From contig DCVM01000012.1 in the NCBI GenBank assembly GCA_002327985.1, forward strand, positions 29-64,028: a stretch of DNA of 64,000 nt. Reading direction: 5' to 3'. The notes beneath the pieces were generated by a model. The model made no database searches. It was not told the DNA's origin and worked only from the letters and a program-made list of their open reading frames with translations. The stretch is from Syntrophaceae bacterium UBA2188. Lineage in GTDB: Bacteria > Desulfobacterota > BSN033 > UBA1163. This document shows positions 6,802-43,582 of the stretch, piece after piece. The stretch's first letter is position 1. Each line of letters begins with the position of its first letter. The position numbers were made by a program, and so were the translations under genes.

Positions 6802-7563
6802 TCATCGGAGCATGATCCCACCATCTATCACGATTGCAGAACCTACCATATAATCGCTGGCTGCTGAAGCAAGAAAAACAGCTAATCCCTTTATTTCTTC
6901 TGGGTTAGCTATCCTGCCGATCGGGACGAGTTTCTTCACCTCTTTTTCGAATCTCTCTCGGCCTTTAGGGTTTAGCTGGGTATCAAAGAGGCCAGGACAT
7001 ATCGCATTGACTTGAATGTTATATGGAATGAGTTCTAAGGCCATCACTCTTGTTAGCATAAGGCCACCCCCTTTGCTAGCACAATAATCCCCACTATGGG
7101 GTAATGGCCTAAATGACCCAATCGAGGTAACATTGATTATCTTTCCTTTCTTTTCTTTGATCATCTCCTTGGCAGCAGCTCTTGAACATAAAAATATTCC
7201 TTTCAAATTGATGGCCTGGGTCTCATCCCATTCTTCGATACTCATCTCTGTCACAGCTTTTGCGCTTCCCGTGATCCCCGCATTATTAACCAATATATCC
7301 ACCTTCCCAAACTTCTTAACCGTGATAGCGATCAAATCTTCAACCTGTTGAGGATGACTGACATCGCAACGGACGGCTAACGTTTTTACACCAAGCTTTT
7401 CTATCTCTAAGCCGACCTCTTCACAAGCGTCTAAATGACGAGCACAAAGAACAATATTTGCCCCTGCTTCAGCCAGCCCTTTAGAAATTCCCAGGCCTAT
7501 CCCCCGATATCCTCCTGTGACCACTGCCACTTTCCCTGTCAGATCAAACATCTGTAATTTCAT
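6802..7563 (-). CDS. SDR family oxidoreductase (3-oxoacyl-ACP reductase-like)
   Basis: VVTGGYRGIGLG Rossmann motif, 253 aa, NNAG and Y..K catalytic elements (YCASKGG). Confidence 0.85.
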   Translation of the reverse strand: MKLQMFDLTGKVAVVTGGYRGIGLGISKGLAEAGANIVLCARHLDACEEVGLEIEKLGVKTLAVRCDVSHPQQVEDLIAITVKKFGKVDILVNNAGITGSAKAVTEMSIEEWDETQAINLKGIFLCSRAAAKEMIKEKKGKIINVTSIGSFRPLPHSGDYCASKGGGLMLTRVMALELIPYNIQVNAICPGLFDTQLNPKGRERFEKEVKKLVPIGRIANPEEIKGLAVFLASAASDYMVGSAIVIDGGIMLR

Positions 7564-7618: not shown

Positions 7619-8248
7619 TCATTTATAAACATAACAGCGGCAAGGTTCCTCCCCAATTTTCTCCGGGGGATCCGTGATCATTAATGCTTTCCCTCCTGGT
7701 TCAGTGGGGCAGGTTCCCATGACATAACAGTGGGCGCAGTACACTGGAAAATTTGGCCTATTAAACGTCATAGGCTGGGGTTTCTTAATTCTCAAAAAGC
7801 TACCAGGTGGATCATAGGCACCCTCTAAGACAAGACGACCGCCGCTCCCACAACATGGTTGAGTATGAATAACAAATTTTTCATCATCTTCTTCTATTTT
7901 AATCGGATGGAGGTGCCCCCTCAATCCGGCTGCCAATATCTCAATTTTCTCTCGAGTACTCTTGTTGGCATATCGCTTGCCTAATCGGAGTGATAAGTCA
8001 CCCACTGTTTCTTTCATCGCCTCATACAAAACCTCATCTCCATAATTTTTTCCAATAAACGTTAATAGGCCTGTAATCCAATCTCGATATAAGTCATGCA
8101 TTCCTAAAAATTCATTGTACATCCTCTTACTTAACTTCTTAGCGGTCTTCTTATCCCCAGCCTCGATAGCGGCTTGGAGGAGATCTAATGTCCGTTCTCC
8201 CATCATTCTTAACTCTTCTTCTGTGAAGACTCTTTTCTCCTCCATGTT
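7619..8248 (-). CDS. hypothetical protein with C-terminal Cys-rich motif (CCGSGG...CAHC...C...C.C)
   Basis: ORF embedded in operon; likely true start at MEEKRVF with strong RBS GGGGAG (track ORF extends to 8371 and would overlap the crotonase gene); no recognisable family. Confidence 0.4.
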   Translation of the reverse strand, partial: NMEEKRVFTEEELRMMGERTLDLLQAAIEAGDKKTAKKLSKRMYNEFLGMHDLYRDWITGLLTFIGKNYGDEVLYEAMKETVGDLSLRLGKRYANKSTREKIEILAAGLRGHLHPIKIEEDDEKFVIHTQPCCGSGGRLVLEGAYDPPGSFLRIKKPQPMTFNRPNFPVYCAHCYVMGTCPTEPGGKALMITDPPEKIGEEPCRCYVYK

Positions 8249-38811: not shown

Positions 38812-39444
38812 CTATCTCCTCCTTTCCATTTGCTGTACCCCACCTAAAAAGATTTCTAAAACCGTATCCAACTTTGAAATGAGTGGATAGTATTCTGGAC
38901 TGATCAGCCATTCAAAGACAAAGGAATTGACCACTCCCACCAGGGCATGAGCTAAATCCAGAGGATTCATGGATTTGAATTCCCCTTCCTTGACCCCATG
39001 TTTCATCACCTCGGCGAGAAGGTGGATATAAATAATCATCTTGTTATGGATTCCTTTTCCTAAATCCTCTTTGACCGTCCACTCAAACCGATTTCGTTCT
39101 GAGATGTAGATCCTTAAGAAATCGCGATTCTTTTCGAAGAATTCGAACTGAAGGGCCAGCACCTTCTTGATTCGGTCTACGGCCGAGGTCTTCTGAGAGA
39201 GTTCGGTTTTAACCAGCCGATTGATCTCTTGGACCTTATCATCAATGAGGGTAAAATAAAGTTCCTCTTTCGATTTGAAATACTTATAGAGGGTCCCCGT
39301 TCCAAATTCTGCTTCCCGCGCAATATCACTCATGGTGGTGGGGAAGAATCCTTTGGCGGCAAACACCTTTTCTGCTGCCGAAAGGATTTCTCCACGATGG
39401 GCTAAATATTCCCTTTCCTTCCGGCTTATTTTCTCTCTCTCCAT
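38812..39444 (-). CDS. TetR/AcrR family transcriptional regulator (efflux operon repressor)
   Basis: HTH FFPTTMSDIAREAEFGTGTLYKYFKSKEELY; first gene of the efflux operon. Confidence 0.85.
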   Translation of the reverse strand: MEREKISRKEREYLAHRGEILSAAEKVFAAKGFFPTTMSDIAREAEFGTGTLYKYFKSKEELYFTLIDDKVQEINRLVKTELSQKTSAVDRIKKVLALQFEFFEKNRDFLRIYISERNRFEWTVKEDLGKGIHNKMIIYIHLLAEVMKHGVKEGEFKSMNPLDLAHALVGVVNSFVFEWLISPEYYPLISKLDTVLEIFLGGVQQMERRR

Positions 39445-39490
39445 TTTTAATAAACCTTTTAACGAGTCTCAAGAATAGTTATTCACTTTT

Positions 39491-39504
39491 TGAACAACAG
39501 TTCA
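39491..39504. promoter_or_regulatory. candidate TetR operator: inverted repeat TGAACaacaGTTCA about 50 bp upstream of the tetR-acrAB-tolC operon
   Basis: Perfect 5-4-5 palindrome in AT-rich promoter region upstream of 38812-39444. Confidence 0.3.
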
Positions 39505-39583
39505 TTTTTAAAATAAAAAAAAAGTGCTGTCAAGCTAAATTTTACTTAAATTTCTTTCATCCTCTTTCATTTCAAGTCCTGCC

Positions 39584-40198
39584 TTAGGCTTTGGGTGGTA
39601 GGGAAACAAGCTTCCCGCTCACCTCCAGAATATGGACCATCACCCCCTTTAAGGCTTCGAGGATACCTAAATAAATGGGTGAGGATTTGGGCACGCAGAT
39701 TCCTTGAATCAACCTCTCCTCATGTTCTTCGGAGTAGCCATTCGCAATTTTAAATATGGACCTCACCTCCTCTCCAATTCGCTGAGCCAGAAGCTTGTTC
39801 TGGGTAGTGATGAGATCCGGAAGGTTTTCCAAAAGTCTCATGGCTTCTTGAAATACATCATTCACTTCTTTGACTGCCCGATCACTAAAAAGGTTATGAT
39901 GTTGAGACTTGGCTTTGAGTCGATCAAAAATCCCCTCAATATTGTAAGTCATACGGTCCAAACTGGAGGCGATCGAGAGATAAGGCTTTGCCCACTCCCT
40001 CCCTTTTTCGCTCGACGGACTCTTTGAAATAATGAAACTGGTCAACTCTGAGGAATATTGATGAATCTTATCTTTCACTATCTCTGCCTCTGTAAAGGGT
40101 TTCTCCGAAGGTCCTCGAAATCCCTCGAAAGCCAATTCCAACATCTTCATCAGACCCTGACAAACCAGAACCATCTTCTCCATGATCTCTTTGTCCAT
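39584..40198 (-). CDS. hypothetical all-helical protein, possibly PhoU/DUF47-like
   Basis: 204 aa, predicted helical, weak PhoU-like patterning; no phosphate transporter nearby; assignment tentative. Confidence 0.3.
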   Translation of the reverse strand: MDKEIMEKMVLVCQGLMKMLELAFEGFRGPSEKPFTEAEIVKDKIHQYSSELTSFIISKSPSSEKGREWAKPYLSIASSLDRMTYNIEGIFDRLKAKSQHHNLFSDRAVKEVNDVFQEAMRLLENLPDLITTQNKLLAQRIGEEVRSIFKIANGYSEEHEERLIQGICVPKSSPIYLGILEALKGVMVHILEVSGKLVSLPPKA

Positions 40199-40262
40199 CT
40201 TTCTTCCCCTTTCTGCAACTGGAAGATCCCCACAGCCTGATTTAGATCATACAGCCTAAAAC

Positions 40263-41513
40263 CTAAAACAGGTTCAATTGATCCTTCGATGCGTCCCCTC
40301 TTTTTTTCTCAGGGAAAAGATTGATTTTCCCATAAGCCCCGTCATGGCCTGGAACAATCGAAACTTTTTCCTGCCTCATTCGGATAATTCCCTCTAAGAT
40401 AGCGGGGGAAACAAATGAAGCCAATTCGTCAGGCGTGGCATCGAGGAGGATCCTAAATTCCGGACCTCCTCGATCAATCAATCTTTCATATTCAGACTCC
40501 ACTGCCTTGGTCCCCACTCCAACATCCAATGCCTCCGCGACGATCTCCTCCAATGGAATAAGGTGAATGGAGGGGATGGCATGCTTCGGAATAAAGCTTT
40601 CTGGACGATCAGCCAATTCCTCCACCCGATGCATCACCCCAACGGTCAACTTCTTATGACAGTTCGGGCAGAGATACTGATTTGCCTTGGTTTGAGAAGG
40701 AGAAAAGATCACACCACATTGACGATGACCATCATAATGATATTTCCCCTCCTCTGGAAAGAATTCGATGGTGAAGAGTAGTTTCCTTGGGTCTTTCTTT
40801 CGAATGGCCTCCGCGATCTCTCGATAATCCAATGCACAATCGAAGGCATTGGCTTCCCTTCCCAACCGGTTTGGGGAGTGGGCATCGGAATTGGAGAGGA
40901 GGGTAATGGAATCAAGGGCTGACCATCTCCAGTTCATCTCCGGATCTGAAGAGAGGCCTGTCTCGATGGCATGGATATGAGGAGATATCTCTCCATAACA
41001 TTCTTGAATGGAATCGAATCCTGAATTGGCTCCAAAGATTGAAAACCAGGGGGTCCAGGCATGGGCAGGAATGATCAGGCAATCCGCCGAAATATCTAAA
41101 ATCATCTTTGCCAATTCTTTTGCTGAAAAACTAAAAATGGGTCTCCCATCTGACGAGAGTTTCCCAAGGTTTCCCAATTTAGAACGAATCGTCTCAACCA
41201 CTTCGAAGCTGGGGGCAAAAATGAGGGTGTGGATCCGCCTACCCTTGCCCTCCTGAGAGTAAATGTTGCTCACTTCAGCCGTCAAAATATACTGGACGCG
41301 CTCATCTCCCTTGATCAGTTTAAGAAGACCATTCCCCAAAGGTTCCAATTTTGACCGCAACTCGGCGAAATAGGTCGGATGGGTAAAGTCTCCTGTGCCG
41401 AGAAGAGCGATTCCCTTTTTCTTTGCCCATCGAGCAAGGTTCTCCACCTCCATCTCCTTGCTTGTGGCCCGACTGAACTTAGAATGAAGATGAAAATCAG
41501 CAATAAACCGCAT
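40263..41513 (-). CDS. PHP-domain protein, endonuclease Q (EndoQ/TIGR00375)-like
   Basis: N-terminal PHP metal site ADFHLHSKFSRATS, further His/Asp ligands (PAHAWTPWFS, NSDAHS), internal zinc finger CPNCHKK...HRVEE; 416 aa. Confidence 0.55.
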   Translation of the reverse strand: MRFIADFHLHSKFSRATSKEMEVENLARWAKKKGIALLGTGDFTHPTYFAELRSKLEPLGNGLLKLIKGDERVQYILTAEVSNIYSQEGKGRRIHTLIFAPSFEVVETIRSKLGNLGKLSSDGRPIFSFSAKELAKMILDISADCLIIPAHAWTPWFSIFGANSGFDSIQECYGEISPHIHAIETGLSSDPEMNWRWSALDSITLLSNSDAHSPNRLGREANAFDCALDYREIAEAIRKKDPRKLLFTIEFFPEEGKYHYDGHRQCGVIFSPSQTKANQYLCPNCHKKLTVGVMHRVEELADRPESFIPKHAIPSIHLIPLEEIVAEALDVGVGTKAVESEYERLIDRGGPEFRILLDATPDELASFVSPAILEGIIRMRQEKVSIVPGHDGAYGKINLFPEKKRGDASKDQLNLF

Positions 41514-41621
41514 ACCCTATGCACCTAAAATTCGAAGCACGAAATCCGAAATACGAAATCATCTCAAATGTCGAACAAACATTTCATGGCCTTCCCTTTT
41601 TCCTCGATTCTCTAACTCCAC

Positions 41622-41990
41622 TTACTCAATGGGTCCTTTTAATTCTTTTACCATCATACAGCTCATATTCCCCCTCTCTGACGAAACCCCCTGAAGCATT
41701 CCTTCTTTTTGAGTTCTCAGCCCGCAATAGCCCCACCCTCCTTCCAAAATTTGACATTGATTGACACAGACCTGCCAAAGGAGTCCTGATCTATTTCGAG
41801 GAGGGGTGGTTACCAAATAGAATGGTTCCCGGGAGGAACGATGCGTATTCTCAATGAAAAGTTTAATGTTCTCCTTTCCTGATCGAAGGCAATGGATACA
41901 GACCGGGAGGGCTTCAGAAAGAAGGCTCACCTCTTTCCCGCAAGTGAGGCACTCTTTTCCCCATTGGGCCTTAGCCTTTTTATAAACCAC
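41622..41990 (-). CDS. small Cys-rich protein resembling the N-terminal zinc-ribbon region of PFL-activase/AmrS-type radical SAM enzymes; lacks CxxxCxxC (possible gene remnant)
   Basis: CLTCGK...CIHC plus CVNQCQILEGGWGYCGLRTQKEGML, compared with CGLCHHRCTI...GLCGVRENREGKLY in the AmrS at 60094-61143; ORF stops before any radical SAM core. Confidence 0.35.
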   Translation of the reverse strand: MVYKKAKAQWGKECLTCGKEVSLLSEALPVCIHCLRSGKENIKLFIENTHRSSREPFYLVTTPPRNRSGLLWQVCVNQCQILEGGWGYCGLRTQKEGMLQGVSSERGNMSCMMVKELKGPIE

Positions 41991-42262
41991 TCTTTTACCC
42001 CGTTAAGAAACCCCGAACAATTACTTGGAAATTAAAGGTTCCGTTCAACGGTGACGATGCCCGTATCGTTAATAAAAGGTTACGTTTAACGTCCTCTTCA
42101 TTCTTTGGCTGGTACCTTAACCGATTACCGAAACGGGCTTCGTAGCCTTTGCCTTAACCCGAACCACTGTAGTATTTTCATGGTCCGCGCCTGTCTGCCG
42201 GTAGGCAGGGGTGACCACGTGGCCATCATGGGTAATTAATTTCCTTCCCTCACAAATGGGGT

Positions 42263-42520
42263 TTACTCCACGACTTTATAAACAACGTCGTGTTCCCTCA
42301 CTTTGTCCTTCACCTTGATCCCGATATCTGCCCCCGGCCCTGCTTCCTGAACATTGATGTTCTCAATCTGCATCGAATCGATGGTTTGTGTGACATCGGT
42401 CGTATGTCCAACAATATGGATGGTATCCCCGACCTTTAATGAACCCTCTGATAAGCGTATCGCCGCGACACTAATCTTTCCAAAATATTTGATGATTTCT
42501 CCCACTTTCTTCTCTTCCAT
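42263..42520 (-). CDS. standalone EF-Tu domain-2-like beta-barrel protein
   Basis: 85 aa; pattern G.I..AAIRLSEGSLKVGDTIHIVG...T.SMQIE...V.EAGPGADIGIKVK matches GTP_EFTU_D2 barrel (compare GTVVTGRVERGxxKVGDEVEIVG...V.SIEMF...EAxAGDNVG). Confidence 0.5.
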   Translation of the reverse strand: MEEKKVGEIIKYFGKISVAAIRLSEGSLKVGDTIHIVGHTTDVTQTIDSMQIENINVQEAGPGADIGIKVKDKVREHDVVYKVVE

Positions 42521-42535
42521 CTTTTTCCTCCTTTC

Positions 42536-43582
42536 TTAAGCGTTCATGTCAATTCCTATTCTCCTGATCGCTTCAAAAACTTCATCCATCTCTATAGCTC
42601 TCAGGCATTCAAAGTCCTTACACTGAAAAAATCGCTCTTGAGGGCAAGGAGAGCAGGGCATTCCCCTCCGAACCACAGCCGTCTTTTCCCCCCTCGGTGA
42701 CCAAACCATGTGATTCGATGGCCCGAAGATGGCAATCGTCGGAATCCCTAAGGCCGCAGCCATATGAGAAATCCCAGAATCATTTCCGATATAAAACCAG
42801 CTCCCTTCCATGACGGAGGCCAGTTGGAGAAGGGTAAGCCCCTTTGCGATGATGAGTTGATTGGAACTCACCTCTTCAAAGACCTGCTCAACTTCTCTCC
42901 CCTCAGCCGGACCAAGAACAATGAGAATTTTGGAGTTGAGGCGATCTTGTAGAGTACGAGTCAGGTTTAAAAATTGATCCAGAGGCCAAACTTTTTTTTT
43001 GCTTCCACTGCCAGGATGGAGGATGACCCCTTTCGATCGTTCTGCCTGAGTCACCCCTTTGCTTTTCCAGTAATCCCTGGCCCATTGTCGATCCGACTCT
43101 TTCAAATGAAGTCTGGGATTCGATTCCGAGTTGTGAAGCCCAAACTGGTCCAATTGTTTGAGAAGATGATCTGTTACATGAACCTGCTTATCCCAGGGTG
43201 GAAAGGAATTGATGTGAAGGAGCCGACCCTGGCAAACCCTTCTCAGGTTCGCCATGACCGCTCCTTCTCCATCTTTTCCAAACATGACAATCAGATCGAA
43301 TGTTTTGAAAAATTGAGACAGAGGAAAGTCTAAAAATCCATCTCGAACAAAAAAAGTCGCCATTCCCTTTTGATCGATAGAGAGAATTTCATCGGCATAA
43401 TGTCGCTTTTCAACCAACTCCAGAATTCTCGGGTATCCCATCATGGCGGATCGGGCATAGGGAAAGGCCTTTCGAAGGGTTTCGAGGGCAGGCAAAGCAA
43501 GGATGAAATCACCCAAGGCACCCTGGTGAATCACCAAAATGGATGACACCCCGGATGCCTGGTTCGAATGGGAAGGAATCAT
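42536..43582 (-). CDS. glycosyltransferase family 9 (ADP-heptose:LPS heptosyltransferase-like)
   Basis: ILVIHQGALGDFILALPALETLRKAFP N-terminal motif and C-terminal GNDSGISHMAAALGIPTIAIFGPS. Confidence 0.8.
   Translation of the reverse strand: MIPSHSNQASGVSSILVIHQGALGDFILALPALETLRKAFPYARSAMMGYPRILELVEKRHYADEILSIDQKGMATFFVRDGFLDFPLSQFFKTFDLIVMFGKDGEGAVMANLRRVCQGRLLHINSFPPWDKQVHVTDHLLKQLDQFGLHNSESNPRLHLKESDRQWARDYWKSKGVTQAERSKGVILHPGSGSKKKVWPLDQFLNLTRTLQDRLNSKILIVLGPAEGREVEQVFEEVSSNQLIIAKGLTLLQLASVMEGSWFYIGNDSGISHMAAALGIPTIAIFGPSNHMVWSPRGEKTAVVRRGMPCSPCPQERFFQCKDFECLRAIEMDEVFEAIRRIGIDMNA

Follow-up and report, generated by a model that had tools for sequence, protein, structure and literature searches.

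We analysed a group of genes in a 64,000-nucleotide (nt) stretch of contig DCVM01000012.1 from Syntrophaceae bacterium UBA2188 (the window), and found that it includes a 416-amino-acid (aa) PHP-domain protein that appears, from its sequence, to be a full-length bacterial endonuclease Q (EndoQ). The open reading frame (ORF) calls, all on the minus strand, agree with the original prediction, which had described three ORFs and a 272-nt gap. They also agree with its placement of the group between efflux and cell-envelope genes. A TetR regulator and then an OEP/MFP/RND efflux operon lie downstream; upstream are a small protein resembling domain 2 of EF-Tu (EF-Tu_D2), a GT9 heptosyltransferase, a response regulator and an M23 peptidase. 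The features are as follows.

39584–40198, minus strand: ORF of a 204-aa PhoU-fold protein (ORF list)
40263–41513, minus strand: ORF of the 416-aa EndoQ, intact (ORF list)
41622–41990, minus strand: 122-aa ORF, putative stump of a radical SAM gene (ORF list)
41991–42262, no strand assigned: spacer of 272 nt without an ORF, ending at the stop codon of the 85-aa gene
42263–42520, minus strand: 85-aa EF-Tu_D2 small protein (PF03144, E 4.5e-9), given for context

Endonuclease Q

In a phmmer comparison with PfuEndoQ (5zb8), residues 5–402 of the 416-aa protein aligned with chain residues 5–384 at about 39% identity (E 1.6e-62), and the protein was also aligned with the crystallised PfuEndoQ 7k30. 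The NCBIfam hypothetical equivalog TIGR00375 matched over positions 2–374 of 374 (E 3.4e-61), and PF27218 is recorded for the protein. An identical protein is encoded on contig DHFU01000081.1 of the metagenome-assembled genome (MAG) GCA_002402385.1. Proteins at 85–86% identity are labelled Syntrophaceae or Thermodesulfobacteriota, and one at 85% carries the NCBI name 'endonuclease Q family protein'.

PfuEndoQ holds two Zn2+ ions through H8, H10, E76, H84, H139 and D193, and mutation of E76, H84, H139 or D193 almost abolishes its activity (PMC5961232). The alignment places the PHP metal ligands of the window protein at H8, H10, E80, H95, H151 and D210, plus H212. These ligands and the equivalents of H195, W144 and R114 are kept in the window protein and in 84–85 of 85 bacterial homologues taken from genome loci. 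We identified two further features in the coding sequence.

40659–40727, minus strand: predicted Zn-binding knuckle H263, C266, C282, C285 (H-C-C-C), from alignments
40266–40280, minus strand: C-terminal QLNLF, a putative beta-sliding-clamp-binding pentapeptide (consensus QLxLF); the protein ends ...KDQLNLF

The zinc site of PfuEndoQ is of the C4 type (C249, C252, C268, C271; PMC5961232). All 85 bacterial homologues have His at its first position, where it is a plausible zinc ligand. A C-terminal Q[LIVM]x[LIVMF][FLYW] is present in 53 of the 85, and the remainder mostly end in QTxLF or QKxLL. The clamp motif of bacterial homologues was already noted by Shiraishi et al., and is the counterpart of the PIP box linking EndoQ to PCNA in archaea (PMC4858679).

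By analogy with PfuEndoQ and the Bacillus enzymes, we infer that the window protein would flip a deaminated base (dU, dI or dX) or an abasic (AP) site into a pocket between its PHP and Zn domains. Two metal ions on H8, H10, E80, H95, H151 and D210 would then serve in nicking the strand directly 5' of the lesion, and the QLNLF peptide may tether the enzyme to the beta sliding clamp for downstream repair.

The window protein resembles PfuEndoQ and TkoEndoQ (PF1551 and TK0887; PDB 5zb8 and 7k30) and the EndoQ proteins of Bacillus pumilus and B. subtilis in its three-domain layout (PHP, Zn and helical domains) and full length. It shares with the characterised enzymes identical PHP metal ligands, the W144 and R114 equivalents and a clamp-binding peptide at the extreme C-terminus. 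It differs from PfuEndoQ in sequence (about 39% identity), in the His that replaces the first zinc Cys, and in having the beta-clamp peptide QLNLF rather than a PIP box. It differs from the characterised enzymes in its host, which belongs to a mesophilic, syntroph-like deltaproteobacterial lineage, and in scoring under the TIGR00375 cutoff. The 5zb8 match, the end-to-end (albeit below-cutoff) TIGR00375 alignment and the complete set of metal ligands bear out the EndoQ/TIGR00375-like label of the original prediction. The refuting case that it had named, a match to a histidinol-phosphatase or another metabolic PHP family, does not apply to EndoQ.

Genes around endonuclease Q

Direct sequence searches with the 204-aa protein against Pfam (PF01895), NCBIfam (TIGR02135) and the PDB gave no significant match. 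Its AlphaFold 2 model (pLDDT 80) is all-helical with seven helices, about six of them long, and the top Foldseek matches are the PhoU structures 4q25, 1t8b and 1t72 (P. aeruginosa and Aquifex among the sources), at TM scores of 0.77–0.78. A word search returned 718 homologues, mostly at least 78% identical, many of them named 'Na+/phosphate symporter' by JGI and three with PF01895. A profile search of 1.84 billion representatives yielded 391 members at E <= 1e-3, 184 of which reach E <= 1e-10; nearly all of the 391 have 190–215 aa. Among 50 aligned distant members, 25 match PF01895 (best E 1.2e-20) and 22 match TIGR02135, which makes the link to PhoU a transitive one. From the model and these relatives we class the 204-aa protein as divergent and stand-alone, with a PhoU fold; its fold and superfamily are settled, in agreement with the PhoU-like label given earlier.

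The protein would share with PhoU (PF01895/TIGR02135; 4q25, 1t72, 1t8b) a helical bundle of about six long helices and a length of about 205 residues, and more distant members of its family match PhoU models. It differs in being 11–14% identical to solved PhoU proteins, in the lack of a direct Pfam or NCBIfam match, and in its setting. We found no association with pstSCAB or phoR at the locus, where the neighbours are EndoQ and the TetR/efflux operon. The E/DxxxD metal motifs of PhoU appear degenerate in a by-eye reading of the alignment (D81-RMT-Y85 and E181-ALK-G185, the second acidic residue being absent from both). The stand-alone family has a motif of its own, HEERLIxGxCxPK, with invariant H159, R162, G166 and C168 (residues 159–168; 39695–39724). 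The motif falls in a loop of low AlphaFold confidence and could be a family-specific ligand or metal site.

We called ORFs in all fetched EndoQ loci (about 85) and searched them by phmmer and with a family hidden Markov model (HMM). Numbers with the prefix L label the fetched loci, which comprise EndoQ relatives and metagenome contigs. A PhoU-like gene directly follows EndoQ in nine of the EndoQ loci (L006, L007, L010–L015 and L077), all with EndoQ at least 78% identical to that of the window. The family HMM found none within 8 kb on either side of EndoQ in about 70 others. A DUF72-like gene (called by eye from its N-terminal sequence) follows EndoQ instead in L025 (EndoQ 81% identical), L016 (76%) and L018 (68%). 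Neighbours vary by lineage elsewhere also: 12 loci have FabI upstream of EndoQ and seven a geranylgeranyl-reductase-like gene (both called by eye). Because the pairing is limited to a narrow subclade and the PhoU-like family has a wider range of its own, the EndoQ/PhoU-like pairing is best read as local synteny of that subclade. Co-conservation of the pair, which the original prediction had proposed as a check, is not borne out; the 81%-identical L025, for one, has DUF72 in its place. These downstream regions are L016 9269–10404, L025 9017–9506 and L018 9276–9995; in L016 and L017 a DUF488-like gene, again called by eye from its N-terminal sequence, follows EndoQ as well.

The 122-aa ORF gave nothing useful in Pfam, NCBIfam and PDB searches, and contains neither a PF04055 core nor a CX3CX2C motif. 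It can be divided as follows.

41661–41990, minus strand: 5' radical SAM remnant of about 110 codons, with the Zn-ribbon N-domain and the CxxxC...GWGYCGLR stretch (BLASTP)
41622–41660, minus strand: read-through tail of about 12 codons and a stop, unrelated, past the deletion junction (homology ends at about 41652–41661)

In BLASTP, residues 1–110 of the remnant aligned with residues 13–122 of the intact 386-aa protein of L006 (60% identity, E 2e-47), in keeping with the radical-SAM-like label first given to the fragment. Intact radical SAM genes encoding 360–386 aa lie between EF-Tu_D2 and EndoQ in L006, L010, L011, L016, L018, L019 and L025. The PF04055 core of the 386-aa protein begins at residue 164, whereas the window ORF stops at the equivalent of about residue 122. 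In the protein alignment this is just before 'WYYDGLPTNCVADW...AVFYHGCS', hence before the Fe-S motif. The best NCBIfam match of the intact protein is TIGR04337, at 77 bits against a cutoff of 220. The core of the intact orthologue in the relatives is thus closest to radical SAM enzymes of the AmmeMemoRadiSam or glycyl-radical-activase type (TIGR04337, PF04055), although far below the cutoffs. The window copy differs from those enzymes in retaining only the N-terminal zinc-ribbon extension and about 40 residues, without CX3CX2C and barrel. A search of 5.8 billion proteins found a single one similar to the 122-aa ORF, a 112-aa ORF at the same position in L005. Measured against L010, the remnant ends at 541 in the window, 510 in L005, 352 in L014 and 279 in L077, and nothing is left in L015; these differing endpoints indicate that the gene eroded independently several times. 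On these alignments we regard the ORF as a predicted remnant, the 5' stump of a radical SAM gene, rather than an enzyme. A deletion, either internal or at the 3' end, would have removed its Fe-S motif and barrel, and the adjoining DUF763 gene would have been lost entirely. The ratio dN/dS was uninformative as a pseudogene test because synonymous sites are saturated (dS >= 1 or undefined). An 81-aa plus-strand ORF at 41519–41764, present in the NCBI and Logan gene calls, was treated as spurious; it is antisense to the remnant, starts in a short repeat and has no Pfam on record.

The genes now missing from the window belong, in Syntrophobacterales relatives, to a packed row of EF-Tu_D2, radical SAM (with an N-terminal zinc ribbon), DUF763 and EndoQ (L018 5295–9257, L019 5333–9257, L011 1390–5257). 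DUF763 follows the radical SAM gene in these three loci, occurs without a radical SAM partner in L012, L013 and L017, and is absent from the window. In 22 of the approximately 85 loci the EF-Tu_D2 gene precedes EndoQ in the same orientation, with varying genes in between. These loci span Thermodesulfobacteriota, Nitrospirota and Patescibacteria (examples are L024, L053, L065, L068, L071 and L076). The 85-aa gene of the window represents the first gene of this ancestral row.

The spacer and its repeats

The original prediction had singled out the 272-bp spacer as unusually long and structured. Other gaps between long ORFs of the window span a range that includes this length. If the 122-aa ORF is counted as a remnant, the gene-free gap is 749 bp (41514–42262). 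In relatives the EF-Tu_D2 gene and the start of the radical SAM gene are 71–110 nt apart, and only the two edges of the spacer align with this interval. The following features lie in the spacer and in the gap before EndoQ.

42011–42244, no strand assigned: lineage-specific filling of about 234 nt (net gain about 170 nt) with dispersed repeats; no homologue in L005, L006, L010, L014 and L077
42046–42133, minus strand: second dispersed repeat copy, 77.5% identical over 89 nt to metagenome contig L171 7217–7303
42190–42209, minus strand: CCTGCCTACCGGCAGACAGG, a slightly mutated copy of the 20-nt near-palindrome CCTGCCTACCGGCAGGCAGG (the 20-mer)
41514–41621, no strand assigned: non-coding stretch between remnant and EndoQ, not alignable with the same position in relatives

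Compared with dinucleotide shuffles, the minimum free energy of the spacer has a z-score of -1.8 for the gene strand and -1.4 for the other, and hairpins are predicted. An Rfam search of 39000–43000 at E <= 1 gave no match in the spacer and one chance snoRNA match inside EndoQ. We found no sigma-70-like promoter on the gene strand of the spacer, no second copy of the spacer within the window, and no tRNA or tmRNA in the window with ARAGORN. A search for repeats internal to the region returned only short, chance-level ones. The spacer contains no riboswitch or other conserved RNA, and its description as structured does not hold given these z-scores, the empty Rfam search and a sequence that is not kept in close relatives. 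Its length would be explained by about 170 extra nucleotides of small dispersed repeats that landed there. L002, L003 and L004, three assemblies made independently from the same strain, all end at 42071, inside the filling and within its second dispersed repeat, which is the behaviour expected of an assembler at repeated or polymorphic sequence.

A 24-nt short repeat, TTTCGGATTTCGTGCTTCGAATTT, is present at 41528–41551, 15–38 nt upstream of the EndoQ start. It recurs at 92–100% identity in the unrelated loci L171, L165, L106, L110 and L069 and in L021, where the copy (7954–7977) again precedes, by 24–47 nt, an EndoQ gene whose identity is only 67%. The repeat could be dispersed or could be a regulatory site. 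We also considered a miniature inverted-repeat transposable element (MITE) with terminal inverted repeats. This candidate was rejected, as only a 9-bp AT-rich inverted repeat was seen by eye near the insertion edges (GGAAATTAA / TTAATTTCC), at about chance level.

The 20-mer, the one odd item of the group, recurs outside this locus. The 22-mer that encloses its window copy, CCCTGCCTACCGGCAGACAGGC at 42189–42210, occurs once in the window, and a metagenome scan for this 22-mer returned at least 120 contigs (loci within L092–L216). The host loci of the 20-mer range from 29 to 72% GC and have unrelated flanks; 18 of 123 copies are no more than 100 nt away from a locus end, and 35% of copies, compared with 85% of random positions, fall inside a long stop-free stretch. 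The 20-mer occurs in five viral-contig stretches, and one 27-kb contig has three copies. About 1.05 Mb of genome-derived EndoQ loci contain nine copies of the palindrome family, where the estimated expectation is far below one, and several MAGs carry the motif. Collections from cultured organisms gave one partial match among plasmids and none among phages. Rfam searches of 20 motif-bearing loci found no family that covers the 20-mer, and a literature search for the motif sequences found no description of it.

Excising exactly 20 nt (CCTGCCTACCGGCAGGCAGG) restores sequences that are found uninterrupted elsewhere, with no visible target duplication. Specifically, the join left by its removal from L213 equals L214 7087–7121 (35/35 nt), that from L184 equals L171 5412–5455 (44/44 nt) and that from L107 equals L171 13183–13212 (30/30 nt). 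The 20-mer is also centred within the perfect palindrome CCTGCCTGCC|GGCAGGCAGG, and its flanks show little conservation beyond one position on either side. In L171 it stands directly upstream of the 7217–7303 segment (22-mer at 7305–7326), within CTACGAAGCCC^ATTTCGG; the window reads CTACGAAGCCCGTTTCGG at that point, without the 20-mer. We tentatively suggest, as a possibility that we hold to be less probable than its negation, that the 20-mer is an undescribed ultra-small element, of which copies are inserted with precision into intergenic hairpins in widely differing uncultured bacteria and in some viruses. Its insertion into hairpins without target duplication would fit a single-strand, hairpin-recognising mechanism like that of Y1 transposases, acting in trans. 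An artefact of short-read assembly seems an unlikely source, because several sources and assemblers carry the 20-mer and the window copy has a point mutation. The 20-mer resembles repetitive extragenic palindromic (REP) elements and other small dispersed palindromic repeats in being short, GC-rich, hairpin-forming, intergenic and multi-copy, and in breaking assemblies. It differs from them in its identity across contigs of 29–72% GC, in its precise insertion into other repeat families and into itself, and in the lack of an identified associated transposase.

Interpretation and distribution

The original prediction had proposed a small, mobile DNA-repair or nucleic-acid-surveillance module, or decayed remnants of one. 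The order GT9, EF-Tu_D2, a variable slot, EndoQ, PhoU-like, TetR and efflux genes is kept in L006, L007, L010–L015 and L077, that is, in at least nine species-level relatives, and GC content is 0.41–0.50 across the region with no step. PADLOC returned zero matches for the four window proteins, the intact radical SAM protein and DUF763. Variable flanks and deviating composition, the signs of a mobile island, were not seen, although no direct search aimed at mobility genes was made. With flanking synteny kept in relatives, even GC and no defence match, nothing points to mobility; the conserved chromosomal neighbourhood and the empty PADLOC result also speak against a surveillance module. The suggestion of decay applies to the radical SAM fragment and, with DUF763 lost too, to the EF-Tu_D2, radical SAM, DUF763 and EndoQ row that relatives carry intact. 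The prediction had also named two findings that would count against it, a metabolic PHP protein and neighbours that are not co-conserved; we found the second and, given EndoQ, not the first.

Given these analyses, we consider it likely that the stretch is ordinary, vertically inherited chromosome of a Syntrophaceae-like member of the Thermodesulfobacteriota, with a working EndoQ among unrelated or decayed neighbours. This degree of confidence applies jointly to the EndoQ identity, the PhoU-fold neighbour, the radical SAM stump and the repeat-filled spacer. Several points weigh against it. At 207.7 bits the protein stays under the curated TIGR00375 cutoff (326.6 bits), which makes it homologous to the curated equivalog but places it outside. 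The first zinc ligand is predicted to be His and not Cys; its presence in all 85 bacterial homologues marks it as a clade feature of EndoQ and not damage. The activity assigned to EndoQ leans on PfuEndoQ and the Bacillus enzymes and not on any deltaproteobacterial-type EndoQ, and should be read as probable by analogy. The 122-aa ORF is still open, and its proportion of nonsynonymous differences (pN) is 0.16 against L010, which we count as no higher than the 0.14 of the intact pair L010–L006; this fits either a recent deletion or continuing constraint on the stump. The pN value suggests a fairly recent deletion. Finally, 64 nt separate EndoQ from the PhoU-like gene, both genes being on one strand, and no terminator is predicted in this interval; the two stay adjacent in L013 although the TetR gene there is displaced by 5 kb, so that they may be co-transcribed.

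These last points are also what would favour a lineage-specific two-gene unit, in which the PhoU-fold bundle might deliver or sense metal or phosphate, or regulate the nuclease. PhoU proteins are known metal-binding regulators, and the adjacency holds in nine of nine species-level relatives of the subclade. We nevertheless judge such a unit improbable, in view of the approximately 70 loci without a PhoU-like gene near EndoQ, the DUF72 gene downstream in relatives at 68–81% EndoQ identity, and the 391 representatives of a PhoU-like family whose co-occurrence with EndoQ is confined to one narrow clade. Somewhat less doubtful, but still unlikely, is a decayed four-gene operon of EF-Tu_D2, radical SAM, DUF763 and EndoQ for an uncharacterised nucleic-acid repair or modification pathway, of which EndoQ and the small protein survive. 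The gaps in L018 and L019 are 6 nt (EF-Tu_D2 to radical SAM) and 3 nt (DUF763 to EndoQ), and EF-Tu_D2 precedes EndoQ in the 22 loci from three phyla mentioned above. The radical SAM gene was found in 14 loci and DUF763 in 10, and in L026 and L033 DUF763 and EndoQ are separated by the gene of an ATPase whose N-terminal sequence looked RarA-like by eye. On the other side, radical SAM and DUF763 have been lost repeatedly and independently while EndoQ stayed intact, most EndoQ loci have other neighbours such as the FabI and geranylgeranyl-reductase-like genes, and DUF763 is without known function or solved structure.

The stump and the spacer each allow a functional reading as well. The 122-aa ORF might be a small zinc-ribbon protein kept after loss of the catalytic domain, as the window ORF and its 112-aa counterpart in L005 retain both CxxC pairs, the frame is open and pN is no higher than between intact genes. 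We think this very unlikely, since the endpoints differ in every lineage and some relatives lack any remnant, the L005 protein is the single homologue of similar length among the 5.8 billion, the gene callers behind the NCBI and Logan records did not call it, and its last 12 codons are unrelated read-through. Least credible of all is a cis-regulatory or small RNA in the spacer that controls EndoQ: the long gap and predicted hairpins would suit it, but Rfam gave no match, the fold z-scores are those given above, the extra 234 nt are missing from relatives with the same genes, and the content matches dispersed repeats found elsewhere.

EndoQ had been described as sporadic in bacteria, and the 2015 and 2018 papers reported a homologue in only a few bacterial genera (2018, PMC5961232). 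We applied two EndoQ peptide patterns to a set with a single genome for each GTDB species and found at least 562 stretches from species-representative genomes that encode an EndoQ relative, so that 'sporadic' no longer applies. The best 80 of these stretches are nearly all bacterial. They include Thermodesulfobacteriota, Nitrospirota, Ignavibacteria, Zixibacteria, Methylomirabilota, Planctomycetota and Armatimonadota, and many Patescibacteria.

The gene group adds a confident EndoQ call for a syntroph-like lineage and otherwise changes little; the PhoU-like neighbour is not to be taken for a partner of EndoQ. Two leads from the analysis may be worth more than the group itself. One is the recurrent EF-Tu_D2/radical SAM/DUF763 row, three uncharacterised genes beside a repair nuclease, and the other is the 20-nt palindrome as a precise insertion across unrelated genomes. 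For the family, the founding papers greatly understated the spread of EndoQ among bacteria, and the H-C-C-C zinc site and the beta-clamp motif are features of its clade.

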